Assembly: GCA_973895155.1 (NCBI GenBank)
Contig: OZ316894.1
Coordinates: 7,650,234 to 7,714,233 of the forward strand
DNA: 64,000 nt
DNA from: Marsupella aquatica
Lineage: Eukaryota > Plantae > Marchantiophyta
Reading direction: 5' to 3'
In this document: piece after piece, positions 7,652-58,900 of the stretch
Position numbering within the stretch: the stretch's first letter is position 1
How the letters are laid out: every line of letters begins with the position of its first letter
Translations under genes and position numbers: made by a program
Notes under the pieces: generated by a model
Seen by the model: only the letters and a program-made list of their open reading frames with translations
Database searches by the model: none
What the model was told of the DNA's origin: nothing

Positions 7652-10158
7652 TTAGAAACATAGAGTCACGGCTTTGAGAATCTCGTCCGCGCTAGACACC
7701 TCAAAGTTTCCACCCTCCTCCACCAATGCTCTCTTTACCTTGAGATTATCCACATACAGTGCATAGCGACGGGAGCGCACCCCCATACCCTTTTCTGTCA
7801 GGTCGAACTCCATACCCAATGCCTTGGTGTAAACAGCTGAGCCGTCCGCCAAGAAATTGACAATGTCTTTGTTTGGAAAGTCCTTGTTCGTGTCAAAAGT
7901 ATTTGCCCATTCCTTCATGACAAACGGGTCATTCACTGCAAAGTTGATTTCAACATAAACACTTGTAAAACTAGGAAGCCTGACAGGTCACCGGCTTGTT
8001 GAATCTCGAGAAATGTAATGTAGCTCAATATCACTCGCAATTTGTTAAATAGGTGCCTGCTTCATACTATCCATCAAAATCAATTCTACTCTCTCAAATT
8101 GTCAAGGCAAAGATATGGTACAAATTTGCCACGAGGATTTTCAGTCTCGAAAAAGTAATTAGCGACAACCAGTGTATGCTCCAGATCGTTGATATCATAC
8201 GGAAGCAACACTGTCCACATGATGGACATCCTTTGAGTTAAGTTTCAGGGTTCAGGAGCTAGACGAGTATCTCTGCAGACCATATTAATCAAAGAGTCTT
8301 GAACCTATATGACGGAATGTGCTTAGTCAGTCAGAAAAATATTTTCTTCTTGAACTCAATCTTTGAAAGGCTTGATAAAGTACCTGATACGCATAAGATG
8401 TGAGCCACACCCTTCTCTTTAAGTTCAGGTCCCTTCTCGATAAAGCCTGGGACGTGCTTCAAACTGCAGTTGTAAATTGGGTTGTGTAAATCTATCACGT
8501 ACGTGATCTGTGTTCGTCATGATTTTTCACAGATTATGAAATCCCTTGAAATTAATTCCACAAGAATCGCTCTACTATATGTGCTGGGTGACTGTTCAAT
8601 TTATGTCGGTCGTCGTGTTTCCTAGAAATCTCTTGTAGCTCCAACAGCAATGCATTTATTGACTGGAGTGTCAGAATGCTATGATGCTGACTGATTTCAA
8701 ATGTTACAAACATAGTTGTATGATTGTCTAGGACTGGATCATCAGCACTGCTACATTGTTTTGAAATCCGAAAATTCTGGCACATCCATGCTCTACTAAT
8801 CCGGTGAGCATGGTCACCATAAGCCCATTGTCCAGGTTCATTGTCTCGAAAGTGAACCGAGCTGAAGACAAAATTTTGGCACATCCATGCTCTACTAATC
8901 CGGTGAGCATGGTCACCATAAGCCCATTGTCCAGGTTCATTGTCTCGAAAGTGAACCGAGCTGAAGACAAAATTTTGGCACATCCATGCTCTACTAATCC
9001 GGTGAGCATGGTCACCATAAGCCCATTGGCCAGGTTCATTGTCTCGAAAGTGAACCGAGCTGAAGACAAATAGCAGGGGATCTTGAAGCTCACTTGGCTC
9101 CAGCAAGTACTAACAGAAGCTATGAGTACCTCGGTTACCGAGGTAGCCATTGATTTCAAGGAATTCCTAGTAAAAAAAAAGGAAAACAATTTTTTTCAAA
9201 GGGGGAGAATAAACCAGAGCCTGGCTTGGCTAGAGATGTTCATATTAAATATCTAGATTCATCTCATTCAATGCGAGACTGGTCCATAAAGAAAGGGCAC
9301 CAGATCTTTCATTTAGCCCCCGATTGACTGCATGGCCACAATCACAGATTTGCCTTGACGATCGGATCTAATCTCTGAACCGCATAAGTGACTAGAAATC
9401 TATGTGAAAAGGAAGCTCAACCCTGTGATCTGGAGATCTTTACTGTAGAGTTTTGTGACAGGAACGAGAAATTGGCAACAACATGCCAAGGCTAGAGCTC
9501 AACCGTCGACATAGACTGGGAGGGACATTCAACAACGAATTTAACCTGAAGAGCAAAAGGGCGTGACCCAAAAACAAAATGTAGCGGGACTCCTGAACAA
9601 CTAAGCAATTCTGGACGAGAATATGCACTGCAGGAGAGACAATGGACTTTTGCAGAATATGACAATCATACTCTGTAGGATAAAAACAACAGTGTGTTAA
9701 AGAAGGCATCCCAACAGTGTCTGACCTTGCAGTTGTACCGGTAGAACCGAGTGAACTCGCACTTAATCTGTCCATCTTAGACAGACGGCCTTGCATACAA
9801 TACGAGAGATCGCAAGTAGCGCGATCGATGTTCTTTTATTACGTACAACACGAATAACGGAGAGAGATTATGACGGAGAGTTGATGCATGATCATTGTCC
9901 TTTAGACTCCGTTTGCCCTACACCTCGACGAGTGAGGCCTGGTCAGAGAGATATTTCATTGCCTCCATACGGAATCCCGTCGCACAACTGTATACACAAT
10001 TACCTGCATGTTGGAGTGAATGCCCCGGGGACTCCGAAGATGACGATCTTCTTGCACTCTCCTAGCGAATGCATAGTTACCTTCTGCAGCGTGCCCGTGT
10101 CATCTATGTAAAGCAGCGTCCCGTCCGGAATCTTATCAAGCTCGCAGATTGGAGGCAT
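7652..10158 (-). CDS. PRXII: Type II peroxiredoxin (cytosolic PrxII-like). Exons 10158-10004, 8463-8384, 7935-7652
   Basis: MPPICELDKIPDGTL...[26 protein letters not shown]...ILCVSVNDPFVMKEWA...FLADGSAVYTKALG...GVRSRRYAL; peroxidatic Cys motif PGAFTPTC; intron phases match. Confidence 0.95.
8771..9070. repeat. Three near-identical 99-bp tandem repeats in PrxII intron 1
   Basis: Unit aaaattttggcacatccatgctctactaatccggtgagc...gctgaagac starts at 8771, 8870 and 8969. Confidence 0.95.
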
Positions 10159-15072: not shown

Positions 15073-16768
15073 AGTGCACACTCTTGGGAAGAAAGATCCA
15101 ATGTACACTAACGAGGGGTTTACACTAAGCGATAAGTATAAATCCATAGAATTGTGCATTTTATAGATAAGAGTGTTAGTGAGCAGTCTCGTTCCTAGCA
15201 ATTCAAGTTGTGGGGTAAATCTCTGCCCTAAAATTCAGCACCCTACTCGGTAAGTGACTCGTTTCATCTACCGCGTGCATTTATGAATAAATGCAATCTG
15301 ATGAGGGAGTTCGCATTTACAAACTGGTCATTCAGCTATTTTTCCAGGCCTTTTTGCCCTTAAATAGATGCCCAAAAAAGTGCAAACTCGACGACAAAAA
15401 GGGAGGAACAAGAATCCTTGCAGTTAGCCCGACATTGCACTTATGGAGGTTTTGCTAAGATAGAGTCCCGAAGTCCCAACGAAAAGCTCTTCCGTTATAA
15501 AGATTACGGGACACCGATCCCGTTGTGCACGGCAGAACGGCCGTTGCGACGGCAGTCAACAGGTGCCGTCTGTTGGTTCCCGTCGGGTTGGGTGCCGCCC
15601 GCCCCTGCCTATCCATGAATGGGGAAAATAATAAATCCTGAGGAGAATGGTAACGGTTGTCTGCCACGTGTATGTCTATGACGCAGACATAGCGTGATAG
15701 CGCGGCGTGACTGCGGTTTGAAAGATTCTGGATGGAGGAGTAGTACCGTAGAGACGTAGAGTTGAAGAGCTGGAAGACGAAGCTCACTTTGTGGAGACGA
15801 CGAATAAAGCACCCGAGGAAGGAAGGCCCGGGCGAAGGAGGGGTGTGGGCTGGAGCCAGCCCCTTTCACTCTGTCTGCGCAGTGGTTTGCAGGTCGATGT
15901 GATGAAAGCTGCTGCACACTCGCCATCGTTCCGCTTTAATTAATTGGATTGCTTGCGTATCGGGTGTCTTCGAAGTCCGAAGTGACGAAGTCTGCAATAC
16001 TGCGTGGTGTGGAGAGGTAAGAGTCTCGGGGAAATGGCAAGAGTGAATCGCGATTACTGCTGTCCTAGGAGGAGAGTGATGCATTGCTGATTATGGCCAC
16101 GGGTATAGAATTGCTTGCTTCTTTATTAGGGGAGGCTTATTCGTTTGGAGTGGACTTGTTGCTTTCCAGGAACGCGGAAACGGAGTTGAATTTTGAGTTC
16201 GTGATTTGTAATCGATTTTGAAGGGGGCAAGCTACGTGATTGTGCTTCAGTTCGGTTGACGAAGAACCTGCTGGGTGGGGATGGATGAAAGAAGAGAGCA
16301 AGAAAACGAGGTTTAGTTTCTTGGTTTACTAAGAGGGATTTCGATTGTCCCCAGAGGGCGATCAGACGACGTGAAGACTGATGGCACACAGGGGCTTTTG
16401 TTGAAACGAACAGACGCGGCCAGTCCAGACCAGGCCAGGCAGCTAGACGGACACAGAGAGAGCCAGACAGCAGAAAAGACGGACAGACTGCACACCATCG
16501 GTTGACACTGCAGCGGTGAGCTCTGACACGGATGTTCGGACATGGAGCGGCGAGCAATGTTGGAGGGCGAGGCCAAAGCACGCTGTGGTGCACCAACAAG
16601 ACGAGAATAGTGTAGAACGAATTCCTTTTTATGTCTTCCCTCGATCGCATTCTCAGCGAGGGGCAGGGTGATAAGGAGATAGGACGAGGGAGACGATACA
16701 TTAGAGTGTTCACAGTTTAGGTAGAGGTTATGCAAGGAAGATAGGAAAGATTCAATAGGACGGGGAAG

Positions 16769-18898
16769 ATGACAGTCCAGGATGAAAAGGAGGAATCAGG
16801 GAGCAAGGACCGGCAGCCTAACCTGGGCAGCCAATCGACCAAAGGACTATTCGCAAGCCTCAGGGAGCAAGATGAGGATGTTGCAAGCACACCGGAAGGT
16901 GCGTCACCGCCGAGGACACCAGCGAGGGGCAGAGGGCTAGTCGGAGGAATGTTCTCTCCCAGATCGGCTTCGCCTGTCGCAACGGACCTGAACCCGCTGA
17001 GGACCAATCTCAACAAGTTCCTCACTCCGTCCAGGACTTTTTCTCGATTGAGAGAGGAGAAAGAGGAGCTGTCTAGATTGACTCCATCCCCTCCTTCACA
17101 TGGATTCACGGAGTCATTCAACTTGCCTTTGATCGGGGCAGTGAAGCCGAGGTATTTAGTAGGTCTGGGCAAGGAATGGCTTCGCAGCCCGAAGAATTGG
17201 GCCCTTCTGATCTGGGGTATTGCCGTAGGAATATCTGGAGCCATACTCTTCATGGTCATGGTTGGAATGCTTAATGCAGTTCTTCCCGATAAGAGTACCA
17301 GAAATACCTGGTTCGAAGTTAGTAACCAAATCATCAATGCTCTGTTCACGCTCATGGTTTTATACCTGCACCCCCAACGGTGCCTCCATCTCTACATGCT
17401 GTGGAGATGGAAGGCCTCAGACATAGTCAAGCTGAGGAACGTCTACTGCAAAAACGGGAGTAGGAAGCCGCACGAGTGGGGGCACATTATGGTGGTCGTG
17501 TTGTTGCTCCAGCTCAATTGCATAGCTCAGTATGCCCTCTGCGGCCTCAATTGGGGTTACAGGAGGGCGCAGAGGCCACCTATCGGGGTAGCAATTTGTC
17601 TCTGCCTATCTCTCGGTGGAGCAGCTTCGGCGGGGATTTACAACATCGTTTCTCCTCTCGGCAAAGACTTCGACGATCCTCGTGGTGATCCAGAGGATCC
17701 GGAGAAGGTGATTCTTGACAAGCGAGAGCACGAGTTCGCGCCGCGGACGAGAATTTACAGGATGCTGGAGAGGAGGGTGTCCTTCGCCTGTAGAGAGGAG
17801 GGTGCGGTTGTGGAGAATCCGGAGTGGAAAGGAAAGCTATTCGACATAACAAACGAGCCCCCTATTTCGATCCTCTCCTCTTTGTGTTGTGTCTGCGTCT
17901 TCGGATGGAATATGGAGCGCCTTGGTTTCGGCAATCGGTTCGTCCACATAATCACGTTCGCACTCATCTGCACTGCACCCTTCTGGATTTTTGACTTGGC
18001 TGCTCTGAATATAACGAACAGAGCGGTGAGGAATGCGATTGGGTACACCGGAATAGCTCTCTGTATATTCGGGCTATGTTACGGGGGTTACTGGAGAATT
18101 CGAATGCGGGACACGTTCAAGCTGCCTGGGAACAAATTCTGCTGCGGTAAGCCGGCTATTACAGATTGCTTCCAGTGGCTCTTCTTTCCTCTATGCTCGC
18201 TCTGCCAGGAAGTGCGCACTGCAGAGTCCTATGACATTAAAGATGATAGATTTTACTCCAGGAATCATTATCTTCCAACCTCTCCTCCTCAAGGAATTGC
18301 CTCTCCTCACACCCCGGGGGCCACTCTCCCCGCTGTCAAAGAAATGGGTGAGATGAATCTTGTAGATGTGGAGTTGAGGGGACACGACAGTCCGTACCGA
18401 GACTTCCAGCATCAGAAGAGTCCATTGGCTCCCCCAACGCCTGTAACTGCCACTCGGGGCACGAATGGCGTTCCTGGTGGCAGCCCATTAAGTGTGAGCC
18501 CTCTACGGTCTTCTCCTCCTTCTCCAAGAGCCAAGAATCCCTTTATCAATCCAGCAGCCGGAGCTTCACCGAGTAGGAATCCTTTTGTTCCTCTTCCCAG
18601 CGAAAGTCCTTCACGTACCTCCACCACTACCAATCCATTCCTTCAGCCCGAGTTGTACTCTACAGGAACTAGTCCTGTACGTTCGCCCTACAATCCTACC
18701 CCCCCTACCCAGGCAGAATTGACATCGCAAGCTAGCGAAGCTCTCATGCGGTCTCCTTTGCGGTCACCCCATCGTGTCAGCTCGCCAATTAATCCTTTCA
18801 GTGCTCCTGAGACATCATCCCCGGCTACCGAGTTACGTACTCCTCCTCTGCATCGCCCGAGCCCTTCGCGCAACCCATTTTATCCGCCGGAGATGTGA
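16769..18898 (+). CDS. DUF2985 / PLAC8 family multi-pass membrane protein with Pro/Ser-rich NPF-repeat C-terminus (709 aa, intronless)
   Basis: WLRSPKNWALLIW...WFEVSNQIINALFTLMVLYLHPQR...YCKNGSRKPHEWGH; PLAC8-type SLCCVCVFGWNMERLGFGN and DCFQWLFFPLCSLCQEVRT. Confidence 0.92.
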   Translation: MTVQDEKEESGSKDRQPNLGSQSTKGLFASLREQDEDVASTPEGASPPRTPARGRGLVGGMFSPRSASPVATDLNPLRTNLNKFLTPSRTFSRLREEKEELSRLTPSPPSHGFTESFNLPLIGAVKPRYLVGLGKEWLRSPKNWALLIWGIAVGISGAILFMVMVGMLNAVLPDKSTRNTWFEVSNQIINALFTLMVLYLHPQRCLHLYMLWRWKASDIVKLRNVYCKNGSRKPHEWGHIMVVVLLLQLNCIAQYALCGLNWGYRRAQRPPIGVAICLCLSLGGAASAGIYNIVSPLGKDFDDPRGDPEDPEKVILDKREHEFAPRTRIYRMLERRVSFACREEGAVVENPEWKGKLFDITNEPPISILSSLCCVCVFGWNMERLGFGNRFVHIITFALICTAPFWIFDLAALNITNRAVRNAIGYTGIALCIFGLCYGGYWRIRMRDTFKLPGNKFCCGKPAITDCFQWLFFPLCSLCQEVRTAESYDIKDDRFYSRNHYLPTSPPQGIASPHTPGATLPAVKEMGEMNLVDVELRGHDSPYRDFQHQKSPLAPPTPVTATRGTNGVPGGSPLSVSPLRSSPPSPRAKNPFINPAAGASPSRNPFVPLPSESPSRTSTTTNPFLQPELYSTGTSPVRSPYNPTPPTQAELTSQASEALMRSPLRSPHRVSSPINPFSAPETSSPATELRTPPLHRPSPSRNPFYPPEM

Positions 18899-21478: not shown

Positions 21479-22943
21479 TGGACGTCCCATGACCTGTTCT
21501 GCTGGTGATTGTTTTTCGTTTGCTTGTATCAAATAAATATGAAGTGGACCTTGCCTCGGCTAAATTGGCAATAGCAAGCTAGTGTCACAAAATTTCTCAC
21601 CGCCTTGGCTGTTTCCATGGCCAGTGCATATGCTCTTAACAGGCACAGTAGTAGTACTGTCTGTAGGTTTGTAGAGGTCCTCTATTGTGGTTTTGATGTA
21701 CTGCTATCCTACGTTCGATTACTGCTATGCATTAGTGTGGTGGAACTCACAAGAGAACAAATTTATGGTCGATCATTAGGGAAACCTTGGATTAGCTTGA
21801 AATTTTGACTTGAGTTTCTCTAAGCAAGAATCTGTGTTTGCTGCAATTGGGTTTGTTTTGGGGAAAGCAAAGGGACACCGAACCCCAACATTCACGGCAA
21901 GCGGCAAAGATTGGTGCAACTTGTTGCAACTTCCTCTCGAGATGAAGTGGCTGAACAACAATGGCACACATATAGAGCTGTAGGAGGGGTATTTTTGTAA
22001 GTAGGTGAAGTTTGAGGATCCTTTCATAATTCTGACACTTGAACTTTTTGTAAAGTTTATGAGCCTTTTGGTCCAAGTTTTCTGAAATTATGGAAATATT
22101 TTACCTAACTGACTGTAAATGCACATCGGCAGTGCATTTTGCACCCTGGGTGCCTGGGTGACAGTCCAAAAGCTGCATAAGACAAATTTTAAATCCAACA
22201 AAAGTACTAACGTTTTTGCTCACCGGAATTAAACTGCTGCACTACTCATCCATTTGAACAAGAAATTCATTTCTTAGTGTTATTTTTTATTAATCTATAG
22301 GAGATTAACAAGGGACTTACTTTTATATTATTTTGAAATGTGTAGTCACACTCTTATTAGTTGTCTTTGAGACTATTTAAACATGATGATATTTGTAATC
22401 ACACCCTTATTAGTGTATGTGAGACTATTTAAGCATGATGATACTAATTACCTGTAGAGTATGCTTCACTCTGTAGAGTATACTTTTGAGTTTTGATCTC
22501 GTTTGGTTGATTAGATATGGAGGATTTGCTTGATCAGACCCCAGAAATGAAATGTTTTATTTGGCAGGACCCTGAGTGATCCAGACCATTGATTGACATT
22601 GAATCAATGTACACAAAATTTCAGGGTCCTGTGAAGTAATTTGTTTTGGGGTATGATCAAGCAAATCCTTCGTTAGATATGCACCCGCGTGACTTGTGTG
22701 GGCTGACAGTATGTAAATGTCCTCCCGCGTGACATGGACTGTTAGACTGTCAGCCATCCCCGCGTCCTACCCCCGCTGTTACAACGACACGCGTGTCTTG
22801 CGTCGACTGCGGAGAGACTAAAGCCATCGCCAAATGCTGCCCCGCCGTTTCTCGCCACGATAGAGCAGAGCAGCGAGGAGAGAACAGAAGCGCGGTGAGC
22901 AGAAATCGATTCGATTCGATCGACGAAAGCTCGAGGAGAAACT

Positions 22944-23156
22944 ATGAAGAAAGGTTTCCACCCGGCTTTACAGTGGATCAGCATCATCACTCCCCACGGA
23001 CGTCTGGTGAGAGTTCTGGCAGGCAAGGCCTTCAAGTTGGACCGCCCCTACTTCGTTCGAGACCCCGGTAAAGAGTCCGAGACCGTGGGCCAGGTTGCCA
23101 AGTTCCGTCGCCGCTTCGACGTTCCGTCTCCGAAAGAGGCCGGCGACAAGAATTAG
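22944..23156 (+). CDS. Mitochondrial-type ribosomal protein L31 (bL31m-like), 70 aa, single exon
   Basis: MKKGFHPALQWISIITPHGRL...VGQVAKFRRRF matches the bL31 pattern MKKGIHP...G(Q/R)(V/I)xKFxRRF, in the short plant-mitochondrial form. Confidence 0.85.
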   Translation: MKKGFHPALQWISIITPHGRLVRVLAGKAFKLDRPYFVRDPGKESETVGQVAKFRRRFDVPSPKEAGDKN

Positions 23157-24112
23157 GAAGCAGAATCGATTCAGACCGAGCCGTTCAAGGTGCAGTAACT
23201 CCTAGGGTCCTTGACATTGTGTTGGTTTGATTTCTGGTTTTGAGTAAAAAAGGTTTTAGGTTTTGTAAAACTTTTAATCGGCCGCGCGCTACTTTCTGTC
23301 CGCTTAACCCAACGGAAGGCTGTAGAAGGACTTGGTGAGTGATTCGAATGAGTTCGCTATTGGGTTTTGTTCGAATCTCGATTTCTCCTTAGAAAAGACT
23401 TGCCCTTGGACTCCAGTATAGGGTCTGTCTGTTACTTCTTCGAAAACATCAAGTCGGCATATCATTCTATTGCCTTCTATGCTCGACGGTCAAGACCGTG
23501 GATTGGACAGTGGGCACAGAAGGCGAGGATGTTGACCTCTGTGAAAATATTACCGGCCGGGAGTTAGTCACGATTGAATCTATCCTCCCAGATTTTATTG
23601 AATTGACTTGTCCTTGGCGTCCTACGAATCCAGGGATAAATAATGTTCAGAGCCGTTACTTAGATGGCCTACACCGAAGACGATTGTGGAAATTGGGATT
23701 ATGGAGAGGACTCACAGGATGTGTGAAGCATAAGAGCAGTAGAGGGTAACGAGTTGTTAGAACTTGATGTGAGAGATTAATTTCAATTAAGGGAGTGATT
23801 GGACTGATTTTAGGTATAAGCTAGTTTGACTGCATCCTTTAATGATGCGTTAGATTGTCGCATGCAGTTTTCAGAATTGGCATGTGCATCTGGTTTCCAA
23901 TCCCAGTGATTTGCATGTAATCAAGGTCGTCAGCTTCAAGTGTTCCTCTAGTCTATTGCCGTCTATTCTGTCCCTCTCCAGTTCGCCTTTAAGCAACTTT
24001 TCTTCCTCAAGGTTTTTGTGCGACCTTTGATCACAAGATTGCGTTACGTCTAATGGAGAGGTAGTCGGTGGTCTCTCTGCAGTAGCAAACCCTTCTTTTG
24101 TTGCAATTCACC

Positions 24113-24719
24113 ATGGCACTCAACAACAACTTCGGATTATTCAACGTCCTTCCGCCATCGCTAGACGACGCAGGCCTTGAGGACCCGGCGCTCCCCGCTC
24201 ATGCTATTCAGGTGAGGAGTCTCTTACCTACCACCTGGTTATTTTGAGCTCCTTGACGCGGGAAACCTACCAATGCATTGCCTTAGAAGCTAATGTTACC
24301 ATGGTTCGTTATTTCAGGAGGCTTTCAAACGTGCTGCAGATGTGCTGCAGACCGCTCCATGGCATGTGCAGACAACAGCAGTAAGCTATCTTGGAGGTGT
24401 TCGGACTGACGAAGAGGAGCGCCCTAAGTGTCCGGGCCGAGTTGAGGATTCCTATTTCGCAAAGCGGAATGGATCAGCAGCGTTAGGAGAGCAGGAGAGC
24501 TGTGTCGATACCAAGGCTGGAGGACTAGTGGAGGAAGGGCACGATCTACATGTCGGGCCAGATGTTGGCCTTTACGAGAGTGATAAAGTGGAGTTTGGGA
24601 AGGAGGGAGGGCCGAAGTTGGGCGACAAGGGTTGCGTTGAAGGACTAGCTGGTGACAGAGGAGAAGACAAGGACATAGCAGATGAGGTGGAGGATGGTCC
24701 GATTCTCGTTCTAGCTTGA
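24113..24719 (+). CDS. Conserved plant protein of unknown function, 166 aa. Exons 24113-24211, 24318-24719
   Basis: Spliced product MALNNNFGLFNVLPPSLDDAGLEDPALPAHAIQEAFKRAA...; the LPPxLxDAGLEDxALP..IxEAFxxAA motif is one I recall from an uncharacterised land-plant family; strong start context accATGG; phase-0 intron. Confidence 0.78.
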
Positions 24720-24941
24720 GTTTCAAAGAGCAGTTCGGAATGAAGCTTAGTTTTGTAGTTTACTTCGGAAGTGTACATACCTCTCAACTGGAAGCAGAAC
24801 ATGGCAAATAAATCCGTAGTTATTGTGATCTAGTAGTCGCTCTAGATGGGATGCTCTTGACTAATGGTGTAGATGCTCTCATTGTCGATTTTACCGGAGA
24901 CACATAAACCAACTAATTTGGATCCTCAAGAAGCTCTTCAT

Positions 24942-25172
24942 TGAATGTTTCCACGGATGGTCCGCTCTTTCTCGAGAGCCCGTAATCAAAAGACCATAAG
25001 TTCAGGCTACTTTCAGCTCTTTGTCGAGAGATGGGAAAAAACCATAAGTTCAGGCTATTTTCAGCTCTTTGTCGAGAGATCGTAAGGAAAGAAACCATAA
25101 GTTCAGGCTATTGTCAGCTTTTTGTCGAGAGCTAGTAAGGAAAAAACCATAAGTTGAGGTTATTGTCAGCTC
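24942..25172 (+). repeat. Left long inverted repeat with four ~45-57-bp subrepeats (accataagttcaggctattttcagctctttgtcgagag)
   Basis: Direct reading; pairs with 36089-36320. Confidence 0.9.
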
Positions 25173-28425: not shown

Positions 28426-31400
28426 ATGTCTACAAAGGATGACCCACGTCATCGTGTCTCAGACCAGCGGAAGCGGCCCCCTCAACGTGGTGGCCTTCCT
28501 CGGAAAAAATACCCTAGTGATGATATAGACTATAAGAGGCTTCGGAGACCGGATGCAAGGCCTGCAATCCGAGTCCCGCTTCACTTGTGGAGTGAATGGG
28601 AGGAATTGAGAGTTTTACTTGGTGATGAACATACTACACACTCAGCTGTCATTGAGTGGTTGTTTCATGAAGTGCGAGATAGGGTTGAGCATTTGAGGAC
28701 ATGGCAAGCAGCGCCCGCTAGAATGCTACAAGATGAACTTGCATTAGCGACAGACATTGGAGCATCGTCAACCTTTATGAATCCTAGGAGCAGTCAATGT
28801 TCAGAGGATCATTACCAGGATACAAATTTACATGATGTATGTTTAAATAGATAATTTTGTTATGTCTTTATATGTTTGTTTTTCATCTAGAACAGGCATA
28901 CAAGATTTTAATCTTTCTTGCAAATAAAATTTCCTTTTTTGAAACTTGTGCTGTCTTCGGGGCTGTCTTGGGATAAGTTTCTCTTGGGGTTTGTAGATGT
29001 GGACTTTTTCAAGCCCTATTTTCCAAAACAATAACCAGTCCATAATGCTATTACATGTGTGGCTACTTTTGACAGAGTCAACAATCTGTAACAAGTGATG
29101 CACAAGTGGAAGAGGAAGAGGAATTGCAAGAGCATATTGTTGAACAATATTCATCAGATGCAGAGGATGAAGCCATGTATCGAGATGAAGATACAACCGT
29201 TCATTATGCTTTAGGAGCTCCCATACATGAGGATGTTGTGGAGGAGGTGCAACAACTTACATTCCCTACACATTTCTTTTTTCAAAGCATACTCTATTTT
29301 CACATATCACACTTTGTGTGTTTATTTCAATTCTTCTAACTATGTAAATATTTGTATTGAACTAGGAGGATGTAGTCTTGGATTCTCAATCACCAGAACG
29401 ACCTGCCTTGCAACCATCAATAGTTACAAACTCACAATCAATACCACCTAGTACCTCTGACCCACCAGTTTCACGTAGGTCTCTACCTCGTCGACCAGCT
29501 ACAATAGCATTTTTTGAGCGACACTTAATTCATAATTTTGTTCAAAGACTACTTCCTAGGTGTCATATACCTGCATGTTCATTGACTCCTATTGTGGAGC
29601 GTATTGGAGAGTTGCAACAAGTGTGGTCTATTAGGATTAGTTGTGGGCAAGCTGGACATGGGTGGACGTTTGTGACTGGTGAGAATGAGTCGGGAAGGAA
29701 TTCACCATTGATTACTCCTATGCTATATCATTCCACTTTATGTGCTGGTCTTACATTTACAGCTCTAGCCGCATTGACATCACATTTAGGTTTGCATGTC
29801 CCTTCTGCAACCCATTGGCATGATTTTCAAAGTGGAAGACGACGACCTCAAGCAGGATGGATAGATGCTGTAAAGCAGCAATGGGAGGTAAACAAAAGTG
29901 AGGTGTGGGAAGATGTAAAAACTCGACTCCAGCAGCAATGTGCACCTCATGAAGGTTTGTAAATGAAACTATTATACAAGAAAATTAAGCTTATATATAA
30001 CTTAGTTAACTTGTTTCAATGAGGTTTGTACAACAAAAGCATGTTTTATTGTTATTTCGTAGTTTTGCTCTAACATGAACAACCTTTACACATTGGACTT
30101 TGATTGAATAAATTTTAGGTTTTTTGTGAATAATTTTATACCCAACATCATATATTCTTGGTTTTCTTGCAGATCCTGGACTAGTTGTGTTTCTAGATTG
30201 TCGTTGGGATTCTTCTCGGAGTGGGTATCATGGTACTTCTTCTATCATTGATAGCTACGATAATAGGGTCCTTCAGATGACCACTGTAAGTAGAAGAGAG
30301 GAGAGAAACTCTTGGTACATGGAAGAAATTGGGGCAAAGAGGGTACTAGATAGTCTCACGGATGCGGGAGTTGTTATAAAAGAGGTTATCCATGATGACA
30401 AAAGTACCATTGATAAAATCATTGAGGACATGGGATTTATAAACCAGAAGGACTTATGGCACAAGGCTAAAAATTTGGTGAGGAAATTTGTGGACAAGTT
30501 GGCAAGTGCCACATTTACCCTAACTGTTGACATAGACACTGTGACATCTCGCTCTGATTTGCAAGCAGTTACAAATAAAAAGTTGAAAGACTGGTTGAAG
30601 GATAGGGGTATTAGAGGTTACTCTAACTTGAGAAAGGAAGCGTTAATTCATCGAGTTGCGGATTTGCGTGGGCTTCCTGAGGAGGAGCTTGTACACATTG
30701 CCACCCGTGGTCTCAAGTTTCCAGAGTTAGCGGAGCATAATTTGGCAAGCAAATTTAAGACCTGGTTCTATGTGTGTTCAAGAACATGTAAAAACAGGTG
30801 TGCCATATTACAAAAGTATTGCACATTGCTTGAAATGCTACCTTGATTTATATAATCTTTGGAATACCTTGATAGATATTTTATAGATGAAAATTAATTT
30901 ATAGCTTGTTTATAAAAAAATTTCTCACTACTTTGCAATGCAGGAGTGGAGACAGTGAATCCTTGGCTTTTGAGTTAGGGAATTGTGCAGATCATTGGGC
31001 TGGTGACCATGAAAAGTGCATGACACTATCTGATCGGCCTTGTCAGCATCTTGGAGAATCTAATGCCTTACAATTGGACTTGTACTATGAGAGAGGTAAA
31101 ACAAATACTGTGCCACAAATATTCAATGATTTTGCATTGAGACAAATTCATATTATGTTTTGGATGTTGCATGACATAGTAATTATAAGATAAATAACCA
31201 GTTTTTCTTTTGGATGCAGATGGGGAAACTCACAAGGCCATGAAAGCTTTCATGACCAAGTACATAAAGCCAGAAAAAATGCGATTTTATACCATGGCTC
31301 GTGAGAACTTTATGTCTGAAACATTCCATTCTGTAATGGGCAAGTATGCCATAAAGCGTATTCATTTTCCAGCTACTCACGATGCGCGTTTATGTTGTAC

Positions 31401-31566
31401 TGCTATGGACTGGAATGAAAATATTAGGAGACATGTTTGGAAGGTTCGTGATCGTCGAGCAGTAAACACAGTTGTTCGTGATAGACCCTCTCGTTCACGA
31501 GTATTAGTGGATCGTACCACAAGTTGGAAGGAGCAAACAAGTCTACGTATCTATGGAGTACCTTAG
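28426..31566 (+). CDS. DDE transposase, Kolobok-like, 764 aa. Exons 28426-28836, 29076-29246, 29366-29954, 30173-30797, 30944-31095, 31220-31566
   Basis: Five GT-AG introns, all phase-compatible, no internal stops (2295 nt). Motifs: RCHIPAC...SCGQAGHGW (Zn-binding), VFLDCRWDSSRSGYHG (D1), EVIHDDKS (D2), QKDLWHKAK (DxxH), ADHWAGDHEKC, MSETFHSVMGKYAIKRIHF...ARLCCTAMDWNEN (E). Confidence 0.85.
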
Positions 31567-32491
31567 ACCTAAACCAACATATATGAGGTAATTATATTTT
31601 GCCTATACAATAACATTTGTTTTTGTTTAGAGACATTGGATTGAGGGTGGGTTAAATGACTAGATACCTCAGTTTTTATGTATGTTGACAAGTGGTCTAA
31701 TTGTTTCATGAATTGATTGTATGTTATAATTGCAGAGGGTTGTTTCTTTGAAGACATGCAAGTAAGACCTGGGGATGTTTTACTTCCATTATGTTGTAGG
31801 GGGCACTTGGATTTTTTAGTATTTAGCATGTAGAGCATTGTAACACACTGATGCAACTTTTGTCTCATAATATGAAAAGGTTTTACCTTTCCCACTATTT
31901 GTTTGTTATTGATTCCAAATTTGTTGAAGATATAAATTTTGTCCAATATAACAAAAATATGGTACATAAAACCCTAATTTGTACACACAATTGTTTGGTA
32001 AGTAACACAAATCTTCTATAGAGAAATAAAACACAAAATGTTATTATGATAAAACAGACTATGCTTTGAATGTGTGTATCCAAGGTTGGAGAACCAACCA
32101 TTCCCTAGACAAGCTTTTTCTTTTGGTATATGGGGTGTACTGCCAAACTAAAATGGATGAGAAAAGTTCATATGTGAAAAGTTTCCCAACAGAATACTCA
32201 CAACATAGGTACAATTGAGTTGACAATTACTCCCAAGGGGGTTTGAACCCCTTTTTGTTGCCATCCAACAGGAGTTCCAACCCTAAGGATAAGGAAGGAG
32301 GCACAGGCCAAAAAAATATTAAATATGCTATAACAAATAACCCAGATAAATCCTATACTTGACAGAGTTAAGAAACGCTGAAGAAAGAGATAAAGTAAAA
32401 GAGAAGAAAAGAGAAGCAAAAAGTTAAAAACACATAAAACAACCAAGTACAAACCCAACTCCAAAATATGAAGAACAAAGTATCAACCATG

Positions 32492-32864
32492 CTACTCGCC
32501 AAGTGTCTTCCAGGTGGCATGTATGGCAGATGTAAGATTCCCTGGAAGGGCTGTCGGTTCCAAGAATTTGGCAACTGATGCCAATTTCTCAGAAACAACA
32601 TGACGCTGACGAGAAGGAATGGCCTCAACATAAGACCAAGCCGCACACATGTGGAAGACTTCAGCATGCAATGGAGAATGAAGAGCAGCGTTGAGTTCAA
32701 CAAGGTTGTTGTCAATGGCCTCACAAAATGCTAAGAACTTTGCAACAATATCATCATGCCTCAAAAGAAGAGCCCTCCTTTTCTGAGGTGGAGTGACCGG
32801 CCATGTTAAACGATACAATCCCCCACCGTAGGATACCATCTCTGCAGGTCTATTTGGATCCTCC
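32492..32864 (-). CDS. KolX-like accessory protein, paralog 2 (main exon; N-terminal exon structure uncertain)
   Basis: Aligns by eye with paralog 1: DDIVAKFLAFC / DEIRSDFPEFC, MCAAWSYVEAIPSRQRHVVSEKLA / ICAAYSYVDSVMKRKRYQVYTHLA, LPGNLTSAIHATW / FPDAVEAVIKATW; T-rich tract plus TAG acceptor precedes 32864. Confidence 0.65.
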
Positions 32865-33463
32865 CTACACATGGTATGCCACAAAAAATAGCTGCAATTG
32901 GTAACAAATAATGAAAACAATGGATAGGTAATGCAGCAAAATATCATGAATAAGAATTGACAAAGCAAAGATGAAATGAACCTTAGATAATTCATGTTGC
33001 CCGAAACGAAGAAGGTTAGGTTGGAAACCAAGCTAAGTACAAGGAAGACTAAAACATATGCATACATATGCATACATAGAATGAAAAAACTTTGGAGTGA
33101 GAATGAGTAGAAATAATTTCATTACCACTTTGGGGTAAGATTGAGGACATGCTATGTTTAGAAGCAATAGCGACCAATCCTGCATTTACACAGGCCTTGG
33201 TTCTCACTTGACCCATACTTGGGGCTTACACAACCCTTGGCTCATACTTGGCCCATACTCAGCCCATACTCGGCCCATACTTTTGGCATGGAATAACTTA
33301 TTACACCTAGGGACCAAAAGAGGTGGATTTTATTATCACGTGTGTGAGCAAAATACTCCCAAGGGGATTTGAACCCCTTGTGCTGCCGACCAGCGAGAGT
33401 TCAATCCCAAAGAAGGGATTTATTTATATTATAAGTAAGCAAAGGACATTACAATATGATAGA

Positions 33464-34101
33464 CTAATATGGACGAAATCCTACAAATTCCTCATGTGGG
33501 TCATGCCATGTTGCTTTGATGACTGCTTCCACTGCATCTGGGAACTTTGTTCGCTCTGCATAACCACATACCCAAGCCAAGTGCGTGTACACTTGGTAGC
33601 GTTTCCGCTTCATCACACTATCCACATAACTATATGCAGCACAAATCAATATTTGTTCCAAAGGTACAACAGGATTGAGTGCATTGTGATATTGTGTGAC
33701 GACACGACAAAACTCAGGGAAATCAGATCGGATCTCGTCTAAGTTTGTCCTACGTTGGATGGGAGGAGCCTCGTGTTCAGCTTGGGCATTGTGCCAAAGC
33801 AATACAAAGGACCCATCATCGCATTGATTCAATGTGACCTTGGTCCTGTGCTTGTTGGCCATTGTTCGCGGACTGCCATAAAGAAAGTAGATGTTAGTCA
33901 AAGTCAAGGAGTGGAATGACATAACAACAATTTGAGGTAAAACAATTACCTCAAAGTATCACAACTCCTATGTTTGTTGCCAACTATCATCAATTGTTGT
34001 GAAGGTTTCATAAAAGGAACTGTCCAATAACGCCAATCTTTTTTGACATGTTGATTGCAAGCCATGACCAACGTGACGATCCTGGTTCCATCTTCTTCCA
34101 T
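33464..34101 (-). CDS. KolX-like / P2X7-ballast-like accessory protein, paralog 1, ~186 aa. Exons 34101-33950, 33872-33464
   Basis: Phase-2 GT-AG intron joins MEEDGTRIVTL...CDTL to SPRTMANKHR...; the C-terminus RYQVYTHLAWVCGYAERTKFPDAVEAVIKATWHDPHEEFVGFRPY fits the R..AY.....W..G...R..LP.C....IR..FP.P...Y.GF pattern. Confidence 0.65.
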
Positions 34102-45710: not shown

Positions 45711-48700
45711 ATGGATCCGTATCAGGTTTTCCACTCAGTTCATCCCGTTGGCGTCTGCTCTCCTCTGCTTTCCTTGTTTCTGATCATGTTCTGGTTCGGA
45801 ATTGCTGTCCGAACTGGCCATGCCGAGTTGAGGCGCCGTCCTTTGCAATTGATAGTAGATGTGGTTCGTGGTCGGCGGGGTGTTGAATGAGAAATTTCGG
45901 GCTCGGGCCGGCATCATGTATGGTCCCGGTGGCGGGTTCATCAATTAGGAGTTGCTTTCGGCATTTAGTCAAGTTCTTCCTTGATTCTTAATGTTAGGTG
46001 TTGATTGTGTGGATTGAAGTGAATGGTAACCGATAAGGGAGATCAGTCAACCTGCTGTAGGTCCTTCGTAGCTGCTGTTTGTCGTGCAAGGATGATTGAT
46101 GGTGGACAGTAGGAATGTGACCGAAACAAATCTTCGGCAGCTCAATTTCCCATTGCTTATGTCTGTCTATCCGTTTGTCTGTCTGATTGGAAATTTAGTC
46201 GCCTAGGGTTATAGACGATGTAGCGACTCGAGTTTGAGGTTAGAGCTCGAAGGAGGTTCTAACTCGGTTATGCCCAGTCCAGTTTCCGTAATCTGAGTCT
46301 CCCTATTGGTCTTTCCCCCGCATGTGCTGTCTTCCGTAGGCCACATGGTACGAAGAGCTTCTTCTTCGCTTAGAAATCCATGTGGAGTGACATCGTTCTT
46401 CCTAGTATGCTAGCCTTTGGGATCGATCTTGTCGAGAATTTCTTTGTGGAGACTCGTGGCTGTGAGCGCGATGGTTTCTGGTTGGAATGAGAGATAGCGG
46501 TGTATGCTGAGCCCCGGAAAGCTTATTCCTCATTTTTTCCTAATTGTCCCAAACTTGGTAAAATTATAGCAATAGATAATTTCCTGCCTTGGCTGTGGAC
46601 AAGGCTGGATACGATCCATTTCTGACAGAAGATTTCGATTTAAAGTGCCCTATGTCTGTGTAATGGAGTGTCGGATTTGGATTCTGTATCCTGTCAGTTG
46701 GCCTGAAACAACATTTGGTCTGGCAGCTTGTGGGGTAAATGTCTTTTTCTCGGGTATGATTTAATTGCTACCGAAGGACTAACATCATATGTTGGCTGCC
46801 TGTCGGAGCAGTTCTTGCCGTCCAGCAAGCACAACTCGTCGCACTGGACAACCAATTCGGGCGCACCAGTTTTCAACAACAATTCTTCGCTGACCATCGG
46901 CAACCGTGGTACGTTTGTGCATCCACCACAGCGCAGAGGTTGCTAGAAAGCGATGTCCCACCCAAAGCTAATCTGCAGCCAGATGTTGAAACTTGTTAGA
47001 TACAGTCAGACCCGTCGTTTCTCAGGAGACTGTAATCGGCACAGAAATTTAAGACAGCTGATTGGAGACCTTGATTGGAAATGGGCACGTCTAAGCTCTC
47101 TAAAGTAATCTTACATTTTGGTCCAGTCTGGTGTCATCCAAGGTTTTCTACGGAAAGTTTGCGCGCAGTTGTTTCCAGCTTGCTCTTAATTGTTGCAGTC
47201 TGCAGAAGTTGCACCAAGAAATTAAAAATCTAACGGCATCCGAATTCCACGCTAGAGGAGACCTGAGCTTGCCCCCCCTTAACGTTGATCTCTCTCTTCA
47301 AATAGCACCATTCCAACTAAACACAAGACATTTTGTATTCGAAGAATAAATGAGCGACACTGCTGATCAAGTATTACTTAAATTGAGAGTTCTGATAAAG
47401 TAGTTCAAATAGAATTAAACGACACATGGCCAGCATAATTAATGTTGTAACACTTACTAAGGATCTTCCCTTGGCACAGGTCCCGTGTTGCTGGAGGACT
47501 ACCACTTGTTGGAAAAGCTTGCCCAGTTCGATCGCGAGCGCATCCCCGAGCGTGTCGTGCACGCCCGCGGATTCAGCGCCAAAGGCTACTTCGAAGTTAC
47601 CCATGACATTTCACACCTCACTTGCGCTGATTTCCTCCGAGCACCGTCCGTGAGAACGCCCTTGATTGTGCGATTTTCCACCGTCATCCATGAGAGGGGC
47701 AGTCCGGAGACGCTGAGGGACCCTCGCGGTTTTGCAGTCAAGTTCTACACTCGGGAGGGTAACTTCGACATGGTGGGCAACAACATCCCGATCTTCTTTA
47801 TCCGCGATGGAATGCAGGTCCGCTCTTTTCCTCCCACCCACTTCTAATGAATGTCTACCTTCTCGGTTCTTCGCTTGCTAAAAACTATTGAAAGAACTTC
47901 TGATGGTTCTTCATCTTACCGAGCTTTTATTCCATTTCCGAAAATTTTATCTAAGAATATGTGAATTGTATGCACCAGAAAAGCACTAGTGCGTGAATTA
48001 CTGGGTAGCTACTTCTTAGTTTCCCTGCGTTGTAGCTGTAATTTGACTTTGCGGTCATGGTGTTGTTGGTGGTGGCAGTTCCCGGAAATGGTCCATGCTC
48101 TCAAGCCAAACCCCAAGACTCACCAGCAGGAACCTTGGCGGATATTGGACTTCTTTTCGCATGTGCCGGAGGCTACTCATATGTTCACATGGTTATTCGA
48201 TGACCACGGCATTCCGCAAGACTACAGGCACATGGAAGGGTTTGGGGTCCATACTTTTAAGGTGCGTATTGAAGGTCATTCATCAGTCGAGCCGTTTCTG
48301 GAAAAGTCTACCTGGAAATGATACTTCATGGCACTGTGTCACATTATAGCAAGAAAAAACCTTGTCTTTGTGAACCGTAAAGTTACGTGCTAAAACCTAA
48401 GTGGACAGAGTAAAGCCTAAATGACGGTCGAGGTCGAATTCTGACATTGATTTCTATTCCTGGGATGGTGCAGCTTATCAACAAGGCAGGCAAGGAAACT
48501 TATGTGAAATTTCACTGGGTTCCCACCTGTGGAGTCAAGTATCTGCTCGATGATGAAGCGGTACTTGTCGGTGGTGCAAATCACAGCCACGCCACCAAAG
48601 ACTTGGTGGATGCCATAGCAGCAGGCAACTTCCCTACCTGGATTCTGAAAATACAGACCATGGATCCGGCGGATGAGGAGAAGTACGACTTTGATCCTCT

Positions 48701-50618
48701 GGATGACACCAAACTTTGGCCAGAGGACCTGTTCCCTCTGCAAGTATGTGTTCATATCATAATCTATCAGCTAGAGTTTATCTCAAAATTTGTCAATGTT
48801 TTGCACAGGATAACAGAGTAGCTCAATTGACTTCAATGGAAAGGCTTCTTTTCGAAGCTGAGCCGTAGAACGTGTGTTATAGCAACACTGTCAGGCATCC
48901 TGTCTTCACTCTGTCACAATATAGCATGCTTGTTAACTCTTTCCTTCTGTGGTTTTAACAACTTCCTTTGAATGTGTTCAGCCTATTGGTCAAATGGTGC
49001 TGAACAAGAACATTGACAACGTCTTTGCCGAGAATGAGATGTTGGCATTCGGCCCTGGTGTTATAGTTCCTGGAATCTACTATTCAGAAGACAAGATGAT
49101 GCAGACCAGGATCTTTTCATATTCCGACACACAGAGGCATCGATTGGGACCGAACTATCTGTTGCTCCCGGTTAATGCACCCAAGTGCTCCCATCATAAT
49201 AACCATCATGAGGGATTCATGAACTTCCTGCACCGAGATGAAGAGGTATAGACATGAAGGTGTTGAGGCTGTAGAATACGATTATAGCTGGATCTCGTTT
49301 TCTCTTTTTCTTCTATCCAGTCAATGAAGGAGGGACCATTTTAAACGAATGTCCCTGGATTGTGACAGGTGAATTACTTCCCATCTCGCTTTGATACTGT
49401 TCGACATGCTGCGAAGTACCCCATTGCAAGCAACGTTGTCTCTGGTTCTCGGCAAAAGGTTAATCCATCACGCACTTGTTTTCTACTGTTGTCACTAGTG
49501 ATAATAATGGCAGATTTATTACCGGACCGTAATGCTGAGAAAGAGATCCCTCTCTGAGTAGAATGTAACATGGACAAAGAGTGTTTAGTTGTGGCGCTTG
49601 TTCTCATGTCTGCTTACGGGGTTTGCTACGGCAGCCAAGTCTCTAGCTGGATATCGTGTATGTATTCATTTTTTACTCCATAGCATAGGATGCTTCAAGT
49701 TATAGTGTGATGTAGACAAATGTTTTCTCGTTTCCTGCTTAGCGATATGTTCAATTTTGCAGGCAATGATAACCAAGGAGAACAACTTCAAACAGCCTGG
49801 CGAAAGATTCCGATCATTTGATCCAGCAAGGTAGAGAACTTTCCGGAAGGGAATCGTATCTCAGTTGTGATGGTCAAGACACCCGGAAGTCTTCTTGTTT
49901 TATCCTTTTCTCTTTTGCGTCCAATCCTACTCTCGTTGGAGTGTACTGAGCATGAATTTGTGATGCAGGCAAGAGAGGTTTGTGGGACGCATCGCTGAGA
50001 TGCTGGCTGACCCAAGGGTGACTGATCAAGTCCGAGCAACATGGCTGTCTTACTGGGTTCAGGTATATTAAGTCCCCTATTGTTCCGATCAAGAAAATTT
50101 TCCTCGCTCTTGTTTCTGGTTGTTATTAAACGTTTACACATGCGAAGAATTTGATTTAGCACAGATGACTACCAAGAGCAGAGTCAGACGTAGTCTATCG
50201 TTCCTGTGGTATTCACGAGGTAGAAGCTTACTGAGGGAGATACCAATATTTCAAGTGGAACAACCCAAGAGGGAACGTTAAGGGCTGACAGTTTGCTCTC
50301 CTACATATGAGACACGTTGAGAACATATGACCAAAATCCCTCATGGCCCTGTTATTTAGAAGACGCCCTCAATTGGGATATTGGGTGGTTGGGATCTTCG
50401 GATGGATTAGTAAACGCGCTGGAGAACGAGAGTCAAATGTTTTTTTTAACCAGATTAGCTGGAGATATCCCTGAATTTAAGTGATATCGAGGGTGTAATA
50501 TGGACTGTTCACTAATAACCTCCGGCACTTTGGTTCTCAGGTTGATGCAGGGCTGGCACAACGACTTGCAACAAAGCTGAACATGTCAGGAGTCCCAAAG
50601 CTCAAGTCCGAGTTGTAG
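45711..50618 (+). CDS. CAT: Catalase. Exons 45711-45725, 46812-46908, 47480-47817, 48079-48261, 48474-48743, 48982-49245, 49369-49458, 49763-49830, 49969-50062, 50541-50618
   Basis: MDPYQ mini first exon; [15 protein letters not shown] (active-site His), [41 protein letters not shown] (heme-ligand Tyr); all phases consistent. Confidence 0.97.
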
Positions 50619-55976: not shown

Positions 55977-58900
55977 CTAGTCCTTTGGAGTATCTTTTCC
56001 TCCGGTCTGTATAAGCAGATCATAGTTGATTGATGCAAGCTGTGATAAATTCTGCACATTACATTCAAATACAATCACATATCAGAAAGAAAGAGATCAG
56101 TGGCAAGCCCGCCCTGATATTTCAAAAGATGTTTAGGAGAAATGCGAAATGCACAGCAATAGCATGATTGATCAAATATATAATCAGGAGAGATCACCTC
56201 ATGCAAAAGTACTACTCTTTCTGTTCCAGAAACTAACTAGTCAATGGATAAAATCCTCACCTTAAACGAAAAATTGCTAAATGTATACTTTCCCACAGGC
56301 GTTGACTCAAATTCGGTCATTTCACGATATTCATCCCCCTGCACAAGAGATACGATACGCTTTCAATTGCTATGACTACAGAAAAAATATGTAGCAACCA
56401 GATATCTACTGTAGGTACTGGATGCTAAAATTCTGATTAGGTGTTTCTATCCAACTTGGATATATAGCGGTTCTTACTATAACTATCATGAATCAAAAGA
56501 ATAGCAAGAGGGACTTCACCCCTTCTTCTGGCCTGGTCTCCAGAGAACCACTGCTCCCCCCATTACTGCTGCTTTCATAATCTGAGGAGTCCCCAAACTC
56601 TTCTTCCGGAAAAACACGCCCATCTGTCGAGCTCCACATGTGGCGTGATGTGAAGTAACTGGTGTCATGAGCAGTATCGGGGCTTGGAACAAAAGCGGCC
56701 TGGAGTCATCACAAGCCAAGGAACCAAGAATTAATCGAGGAAATAGTGCCAGTGCCAGTCATTGACCACAATGATAGTTTTCAGATGCACACATGCCGTG
56801 ACCCTTCAAGGAACTACCACACACACTGCTCGAACTAGAACGTTCACTCATGGACTCCTGAGCAAACTCCTAGAACAAGAGGTGGTGGCATGACTGGTAC
56901 AATAAGGCCCATTTGGCTATCAGGGATTGGACAATAGACTTTGCCGGAATATGTTACGAAAAAAACCAGCTGAAGCACGCTTACGACCAGGAACCATGAC
57001 ATTCACCACACCAGTATGAGACAAGGGTAGCTCTGCCCTGTGCTTTCCTGGGACAATACCAATCTTTTTCTTTGCAACGCATGAATCGATGCGTTTAATG
57101 TAGACCCCTCTCTGACATCAACGACGACTAGGGAAGTCACAAACCTTCTGCCGCGCAAGAGTATCCCAATTTATATCCTTAAAAAAGGGATGCGCTTTCA
57201 CCTGCAGAGAAATGAGTAAGTCAGTACATGGCGAATCGTCACTCCATTACAACAATAATCAAGGATAGGACAAGAGGCCTGACAGGTGTGTTTGCCCACA
57301 TAACTTACCTCTTTAGCTCCCTTTGCACCAAGTCGCTCATTGGGGTCCTCTCTAAGAAGCCTACACAAATCAGAGCATGTTTTAATTCTCAAATTTATGT
57401 CACCTCACTCTGCTTGCATCATTCTTCCCCTTGACGCTTGTCGAGTAACGCATGTAGTGAAAGCACACACAAGATACTGAAAATTTTTCAGAATAACTGA
57501 ATAATCTCCCACTTCAACTCCTACATAGGAGTCTGGTTACATTGCAGTTATTGGACTTCAAGAGAGAGATCGACGAAACAAATTATGCTTTTAAGTTAAG
57601 GCCTGAAAAGTGTCCAACGCTACTCTAATTTTTACAATATTTCAAGGCGGCCGCGCCCGCGTAGAAATCTCTACTTGACTCATTCTTTCGACTCTGCCTA
57701 ATTGGCAAAATCCCTGATAGAGGTGATGTCATATGAATAATCCTCGATCTACAAACATATCATGTCAGTTGTCGAGTTTCTCGCCATGGGACATCAACAA
57801 CTGCAGGAGATCCTACCACTAATCATTGATCTGAAGTGAGTCGTAATAAGGGCTTACTTATCAATGAGATCCTGTGCCTCATAAGACATATCTTCGGGAA
57901 CCTCGGGCCATGGTATGTTGCGATTCAGGATATTGTCAAATATGATCTGCACGAATGAAATACACAACTTCAACATCGTACTAAAAAAAACCCAGATATA
58001 ATCGGTATCTTTCTGTCAAGAGAAGCTGCCAGGACCAACCGTTAACTCCGAAGCATTTACTCAAATTTGATTTCCAAACCGCCAATATATGTAAACAACG
58101 CCTCCTATACTCACGATAAGGTAACCTTGTTCAGTTCACGTCTTAAGACGACACCAAAATCTATTGGGATCCACTCTGGAATCTGTGCTAGCCAACGACA
58201 ACACATGGAAACAAAATCCGGACTAATCTAACTGACGATGCTGTCTGACCATGTCATACATCCAGCTCCATATATGTCGTCTTAGTGTCCATTTGAATCC
58301 CAAAGAATCAAATAAACAATTAATAACTAGGACAGGAACTAGGTTACATCCCACTCGATGGGCTCGAAAACATAAATTAAAAAGACCCAAACCTATTGAC
58401 GACTGTAATGTACAGAAAGAGGTCCAGTTGGTCTCACATGGAGTCAATGGTAGTAAAACAACAAACCCCAGGTAGATACCACGAGGCTGAAACGTACAAA
58501 TCTATAGCAAAGGGGCACAGTACGCATGATATTGGTCAAACCTGAGGATGCTCAGCATTGAACGGTGGAATGCGAGTGAGGAACTCGAACAGGATTACTC
58601 CAGTGGACCACCAATCAGCAGGTGTACCTGTCGATGTCTTACATTAGTTGAAGCAGAAAAGCCATCTACAAAATGAAGAGTTCTCAGATAGCTACATATC
58701 CCTAGCACTGACATGTTACAAAGATTACACTTGCCATTTCTGCGATCCAGAAATCAAACTCACCGTGTCCAGTTCCAAGTAAAATTTCAGGGGCCAGATA
58801 ATCTGGAGTCCCCACGGCAGACTGCTGCTGACGCCTCTCTCGCTGCTTGGCGTACTCTGCTGGAGGAAAAGATTCTTCTACTTGCATTGCAGTTTTTGCA

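Follow-up and report, generated by a model that had tools for sequence, protein, structure and literature searches.

The forward strand of a 64,000-nucleotide stretch of contig OZ316894.1 of Marsupella aquatica, referred to here as the window, shows two open reading frames in the same orientation, ORF1 encoding a ribosomal protein L31 and ORF2 encoding an acidic protein of streptophytes, and raises the question of whether they are two neighbouring genes or the two cistrons of one messenger RNA. The first-pass annotation had placed the frames about 950 bp apart on a single spliced RNA; the measured distance is 956 nt, and one spliced mRNA giving two proteins, with ORF2 reached by leaky scanning, is the reading that we consider fairly probable.

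ORF1 (22944..23156, plus strand) is a complete frame of 70 residues, with the length and the end at 23156 that had been assigned to it, and encodes the mitochondrial-type ribosomal protein bL31m. Its product shows 94% identity to a protein of Calypogeia fissa and 89% to a protein of Marchantia, begins with MKKG and has no presequence. The match to the Pfam L31 family (PF01197) has an E value of 0.0019, under the curated cut-off. Among solved structures, ORF1 aligns to chain 6xyw_AA (E 2.5e-12, residues 1-67), from what we take to be the Arabidopsis mitoribosome, and to chain 9evs_1c, named bL31m (E 6.4e-11, residues 1-61), while bacterial L31 chains match it poorly (E 0.04 and above), which places it nearer to plant mitoribosomal than to bacterial L31. 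No chain named as chloroplast L31 was found among the solved chains matching ORF1 at E up to 1; the automatic UniRef name of the Marchantia protein is chloroplastic, and L31 is not mentioned in the main text of the Marchantia plastid proteome (PMC13419835). By alignment, the ORF1 product would take the place of bL31m in the bryophyte mitoribosome. A table in the accessible part of PMC6953067 gives AT5G55125 and AT1G27435 as the Arabidopsis bL31m genes; ORF1 aligns to the plant bL31m chains, and the bryophyte form differs in having no internal methionine. This residue is absent from ORF1 and from all 31 retrieved L31 homologues, which are related, non-independent sequences and include unlinked Sphagnum-type copies, whereas the two plant mitoribosome chains (6xyw_AA and 9evs_1c) show four methionines within the first 26 aligned residues. 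An L31 scan of prokaryote genomes returned two bacterial L31 only and was uninformative, and a scan of viral contigs gave zero matches.

ORF2 contains two coding exons on the plus strand, 24113..24211 (33 codons, including the conserved EDAGLED motif) and 24318..24719 (133 codons and the stop), separated by intron 2 (24212..24317, 106 nt), whose position is common to moss and other bryophyte homologues. The accATGG described earlier at its start is indeed present, with the ATG at 24113 in an ACC-ATG-G context, that is, A at -3 and G at +4. The product has 166 residues, is acidic and mostly disordered, and its homologues align to both exon pieces; the genomic gene calls P0043, P0048, P0195 and P0201 run into intron 2 at the same residue and the spliced records do not. 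Another haplotype shows an in-frame 9-nt deletion at 24418. The family contains 173 representatives at E up to 0.001, and homologues were seen only in streptophytes, with named members from Coleochaete, Selaginella, Diphasiastrum and Psilotum through flowering plants; the Arabidopsis member is presumably At1g15230. The family shows a conserved N-terminal motif and a helix, and the remainder is acidic and disordered. No Pfam family was found in the two ORF2 exon pieces of the window, nor in 16 aligned homologues apart from a MULE piece in one member. The search for a solved relative gave none (one match at E 1), and the ESM Atlas search with ORF2 returned only unnamed streptophyte clusters. The AlphaFold model of the protein has a mean pLDDT of 56 and a pTM of 0.20, with one confident helix at residues 29-45, and is too poor for a fold search. 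The acidic N-terminus would be unlike a mitochondrial presequence. One homologue (P0205) is a 575-residue protein with a BSD domain (PF03909) and the ORF2 motif internal; it may be a natural fusion or a merged gene model, and is a possible lead on ORF2 function. A Psilotum transcript record (P0140) contains ORF2 at 210-704, preceded by a 209-nt leader. Downstream of ORF2 there is a weak candidate poly(A) signal, AATAAA, at 24807..24812 on the plus strand, plant signals being degenerate; between the two ORFs there is no AATAAA, and the single AATAAT, at 23639, is within the predicted intron described below.

The region between the ORFs is predicted to consist of an exon 1 tail (23157..23189, 33 nt) running from the L31 stop to the donor, an intercistronic intron (23190..24082, 893 nt) and the non-coding start of exon 2 (24083..24112, 30 nt, without ATG), all on the plus strand. 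The splice sites proposed in the first-pass annotation are both found: the donor-like AAG/GTGCAG, with its GT at 23190, and the acceptor CAG ending at 24082, 30 nt upstream of the ORF2 ATG. The intron had also been described as T-rich: T makes up 40% of the 111 nt next to the donor and 32% of the whole 893 nt (44% GC). A branch-point-like CTAAT is located at 24050, 32 nt upstream of the acceptor, which is a tandem CAG-TAG ending at 24082 or 24085; if the former is used, the exon 2 leader opens with a stop in the ORF1 frame. In run X5, another haplotype shows a 10-nt insertion at the acceptor (24078), in which a CAG still follows the pyrimidine run and no ATG is added. Donors were scored with a crude consensus matrix, by which the predicted donor is weak (0.06, third of the 16 GT sites in 23157-23347) and the intron 2 donor scores 3.41. 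The exact donor position comes from a single RNA-library record whose alignment stops at 23189; the first intronic ATG is at 23348, and any donor before it would also yield an ATG-free leader. Splicing of 23190-24082 removes all 14 ATGs of the intron, so that translation of ORF2 would require it, and would leave a spacer of 63 nt between the ORFs.

Further from the locus, the window shows several other features. Dispersed repeats found in many contigs at 88-95% likeness are located just upstream (22387-22670), and short tandem repeat copies downstream of ORF2 (24957-25172). The plus strand contains a single open frame of 717 codons with DUF2985 and PLAC8 domains (16745-18898) and catalase exons (47461-48821), and the minus strand a redoxin-family fragment (7652-7987) and exons resembling a kinase (58702-62579), presumably of AGC type, of which the tested one gave no Pfam match. 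The fragment 28426-33958 contains several unrelated-looking ORFs of 142-238 residues on both strands, two of which were tested without a Pfam match, and is possibly a mobile element.

Five runs contain the stretch. The RNA run X1, a seawater metatranscriptome, has only two records over 15 kb: one covers 23043-23189 on the plus strand (147 of 151 letters, no mismatch) and ends on the predicted donor, and the other covers 24392-24542 on the minus strand (151 nt, no mismatch). The two records face each other, one in each ORF, over a span of 1500 nt in genomic coordinates and 501 nt in the predicted mRNA; if they are mates, they fit one paired-end cDNA fragment bridging both ORFs, which is a hint and no more, X1 having been retrieved with this very stretch. 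Runs X2, X4 and X5 give even coverage of the intron and behave as DNA. No splice joint across the intercistronic intron of the window was found in X1, X2, X4 or X5. For M. aquatica, the spanning transcript is only suggested, and the splicing of 23190-24082 is a prediction.

A spanning RNA was seen directly in a moss-like relative. When metagenome contigs were scanned with an L31 alignment, 143 pattern matches yielded 10 loci: one contains both ORFs (L007), five are of Sphagnum type without ORF2, and four are too short. The L007 record, of 1018 nt, contains L31 at 10-234, a spacer of 40 nt and a complete ORF2 of 177 residues at 275-808, and both introns are absent. A second contig, the genomic twin L008, matches it at 100% over 239 nt, beyond which it reads AAG/GTAAGA, 5 nt after the L31 stop, a donor that is strong and near-consensus by the same crude matrix. 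Since L008 leaves L007 at a canonical donor, the RNA behind L007 was spliced immediately downstream of the L31 stop, and the layout of L007, with an exon 1 tail of 5 nt and an exon 2 leader of 35 nt before ORF2, is the one predicted for the window. L008 ends inside the intron and so does not show the moss acceptor in DNA; L007 is an assembled record and formally could be a chimera. In a quick tree, its ORF2 groups with the moss-type P0082 (support 99), whose partner by length clusters with Ceratodon L31. The claim of the first-pass annotation that one spliced RNA carries both ORFs is supported by this pair of records.

The same annotation had named synteny across bryophytes as a check, and the order L31-ORF2 recurs in Calypogeia, Marchantia and the moss-like L007. 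In Calypogeia fissa the two proteins have consecutive accessions (CAM6088985.1/CAM6088984.1 and CAM6095460.1/CAM6095461.1), and both L31 copies adjoin ORF2, on a same-length chromosome. The Marchantia pair is MARPO_0141s0007 / MARPO_0141s0006 (Mp5g03980), and is consecutive in two accession series (PTQ29424.1/PTQ29423.1 and BBN10494.1/BBN10493.1). An older Marchantia gene model, OAE35437.1 (P0057), shows the L31 N-terminus fused to ORF2, from which it follows that both are on the same strand with L31 first.

Additional pairs were sought by the exact length in nt of the longest contig of each record, comparing 16 ORF2 with 24 L31 records and excluding chromosome-scale and length-less ones. Six of the 16 ORF2 records match an L31 record, against a mean of 0.17 and a maximum of 4 in 100,000 trials with jittered lengths; agreement in length does not prove that two records come from the same contig. 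In five of the six matches both partners are of the same type: those of 995 and 1966 nt are of liverwort type, those of 964 and 1250 nt of moss type, and that of 6449 nt is divergent; the sixth (P0148, 964 nt) is probably due to chance. ORF2 reads across intron 2 in the 964, 995 and 1250-nt records, which are therefore spliced sequences. The 13 seed-plant-like ORF2 records gave no length match, a result that serves as a chance control only, the L31 list having no seed-plant proteins. Of seven short records with a complete spliced ORF2 of bryophyte type, L31 is carried or length-matched in four (L007, P0019, P0082 and P0216) and not in P0018, P0020 and P0217. The colinear orthologous pair was thus found in Calypogeia, Marchantia, L007 and the five length-matched pairs, and the recurrence of order, strand and intron placement in other bryophytes suggests that the layout of the locus is more than chance.

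The five Sphagnum-type loci do not contain the pair: neither tblastn nor a profile search found ORF2 within 5943 nt downstream of the L31 stop. Either the linkage is not universal or the Sphagnum-type intron exceeds 5.9 kb. These loci (L001:6235-6250, L003-L005 and L009) still have a donor-like GT 8 nt past the L31 stop, which could be either a relic or the start of a very long intron. The layout around Sphagnum-type L31 also differs from that of the linked copies: a spliced GT-AG intron ends 13 nt before its ATG (L004:5753-5987 compared with L010), and a head-to-head neighbour on the minus strand gives a spliced RNA that overlaps the region (L002 compared with L001:4566-5096).

These loci bear on the best surviving alternative, by which L31 and ORF2 would be separate genes with their own main transcripts, and the joined RNA a minor read-through product of intergenic splicing removed by nonsense-mediated decay. 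Besides the Sphagnum-type L31 without a nearby ORF2, it agrees with the annotations of Marchantia and Calypogeia, which give two separate genes, with the weak donor of the window and with the situation in Arabidopsis, where the available portion of PMC9768141 describes 271 such loci, 158 of them with intergenic splicing, with organelle-targeted first genes enriched and a start site for the second gene in most. However, the pair, its order and the intron that follows the L31 stop recur across leafy liverworts, thalloid liverworts and mosses, L31 in four of the seven short spliced ORF2 records is a high proportion for a minor decayed species, and by the crude matrix the donor of the moss record, 5 nt past the L31 stop, is near-consensus. 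We consider the separate-gene explanation unlikely.

In the favoured reading, a single promoter upstream of 22944 would drive one spliced mRNA carrying L31 and ORF2, ORF2 would have no dominant promoter of its own, and ribosomes would make bL31m at the first AUG and the second protein by scanning past the ORF1 start. Both ORFs are conserved full-length coding frames, and both proteins would be translated from the joined RNA. Leaky scanning is suggested because G is missing at +4 of the ORF1 start (A at -3, A at +4) and present at +4 of the ORF2 start, which also has A at -3, and because reinitiation tends to be inefficient once 70 codons have been translated. The contexts are alike in L007, whose ORF1 again has no G at +4 and whose ORF2 start shows the same A-3/G+4; in both L007 and the window, ORF1 keeps a purine at -3, so that its start context is not plainly weak. 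After splicing, the 276 nt between the two starts in the window contain no ATG, against 2.46 expected when codons are recoded synonymously and the spacer is shuffled (P 0.043). In L007 a single additional ATG, an ATG-stop, precedes ORF2; with 2.06 expected (P 0.34) there is no depletion, and the unlinked L001 and L004 also have no internal ATG in the coding part; since unlinked Sphagnum-type L31 is also free of internal ATG, the lack of methionine is not specific to linked copies. In the predicted mRNA the first exon junction would follow the L31 stop by 33 nt (by 5 nt in the moss) and intron 2 by 162 nt, and because of this last distance the bicistronic mRNA would probably be a target of nonsense-mediated decay.

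The same mRNA could instead give ORF2 mainly by reinitiation after the L31 stop, which we regard as quite unlikely. The spliced spacers are short (63 nt in the window, 40 nt in L007), the purine at -3 of ORF1 in both would suit this mechanism, an ATG-stop inside ORF1 is tolerated in L007, and selection under reinitiation can also deplete ATGs, according to the accessible text of PMC11892635. Reinitiation nevertheless declines with the length of the upstream ORF and is best after a few codons, as stated in the same part of that source, whereas ORF1 has 70 codons, and the whole 276-nt leader of the window is free of ATG.

A single fusion protein, arising when the L31 stop is read through or when a splice joins the interior of L31 to ORF2, is extremely improbable and was rejected: the Marchantia model P0057 has this form, the spliced spacer of the window is a multiple of three and a donor-like site exists inside L31 at 23068, but the spacer frame varies by species (the 40 nt of L007 are out of frame), a splice from 23068 would be out of frame with ORF2 and its GT is absent in L007 and L008, a second in-frame stop follows with the 24082 acceptor, and P0057, which later Marchantia models split, is the only retrieved protein matched by both families and the only match to the L31 region among the N-terminal extensions of 12 ORF2 homologues.

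One mRNA translated into bL31m and, by leaky scanning, the ORF2 protein would resemble several known systems. Such two-protein RNAs are rare in land plants. Conserved nuclear bicistrons are common in green algae, and CDC26-TTM3 is the well-described case of land plants, according to the available parts of PMC7896298, PMC11892635 and PMC7943633. As far as the accessible portions of PMC7943633 and PMC11892635 describe it, CDC26-TTM3 of plants and green algae likewise combines on one nuclear mRNA a short first ORF, which encodes a subunit of a large complex, with an unrelated second ORF, and shows a conserved linkage and an architecture prone to nonsense-mediated decay, to which its mRNA is reported to be sensitive. 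The genes differ here, being a mitoribosomal subunit and an uncharacterised protein, and the linkage is found here only in liverworts and mosses and is apparently broken in the Sphagnum-type copy. The green algal TOM22-SDHAF3 and REX1S-REX1B, in the available text of PMC7896298 and PMC11892635, share the short ORF1 (213 nt here, algal medians of 291-357 nt), the short spacer, the absence of ATG before ORF2 and a mitochondrial product, whereas ORF2 homologues are found here only in streptophytes and the ORF1 context is not clearly weak. In green algae, a short ORF1, ATG depletion and a weak ORF1 context accompany leaky scanning shown by mutation, as described in the accessible sections of PMC11892635 and its preprint PMC11291117. 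The algal bicistron lists, in the parts available of PMC7896298 and PMC11892635, include the ribosomal-protein entries L3 and uL23-like, and L31 is absent from the seven supplementary files of each of the two papers. The read-through transcripts of Arabidopsis also show two same-strand ORFs joined by an intron, the first of them organelle-targeted; in the portion of PMC9768141 that was accessible most of them are minor RNAs, sensitive to decay, that accompany monocistronic ones, and the second ORF is hardly translated in seven of eight tested, whereas the L31-ORF2 pair is kept across bryophyte lineages. AT5G55125 and AT1G27435 are absent from the five readable supplementary files of that paper, the table of 271 loci included.

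Existing annotations already contain the two ORFs, as genes of their own, and overlapping L31 and ORF2 models may be on display in genome browsers. No report of an L31-ORF2 bicistron was found in the openly accessible full-text literature, searched also with the Marchantia gene identifiers, and no survey of bicistrons in bryophytes was found there either. The locus is probably a new conserved land-plant bicistron of the kind represented by CDC26-TTM3 and the green algal cases. Of the defining features of conserved nuclear bicistrons (PMC7896298, Table 1, and PMC11892635), it shows a spanning transcript, in a moss-like relative, and a conserved colinear pair, and no feature came out against it. 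A bolder extension, which we regard as quite unlikely, is that it would be an ancestral land-plant bicistron tying the supply of bL31m to the ORF2 protein as a functional partner, for example a cytosolic escort (bL31m has 15 K+R and the ORF2 protein 31-39 D+E), the link being lost in some lineages, with bL31m then regaining internal methionines as in flowering plants.

If the bicistron is real, it would be the second deep one of land plants, and it would be present in the tractable Marchantia (Mp5g03980 and its neighbour), so that leaky scanning versus reinitiation, escape from decay and the dissolution of a bicistron would become testable in a land plant. Knockouts, promoter fusions and insertion lines of either gene would then hit both, and the linkage, if true, would give the first lead on the ORF2 protein found plant-wide.
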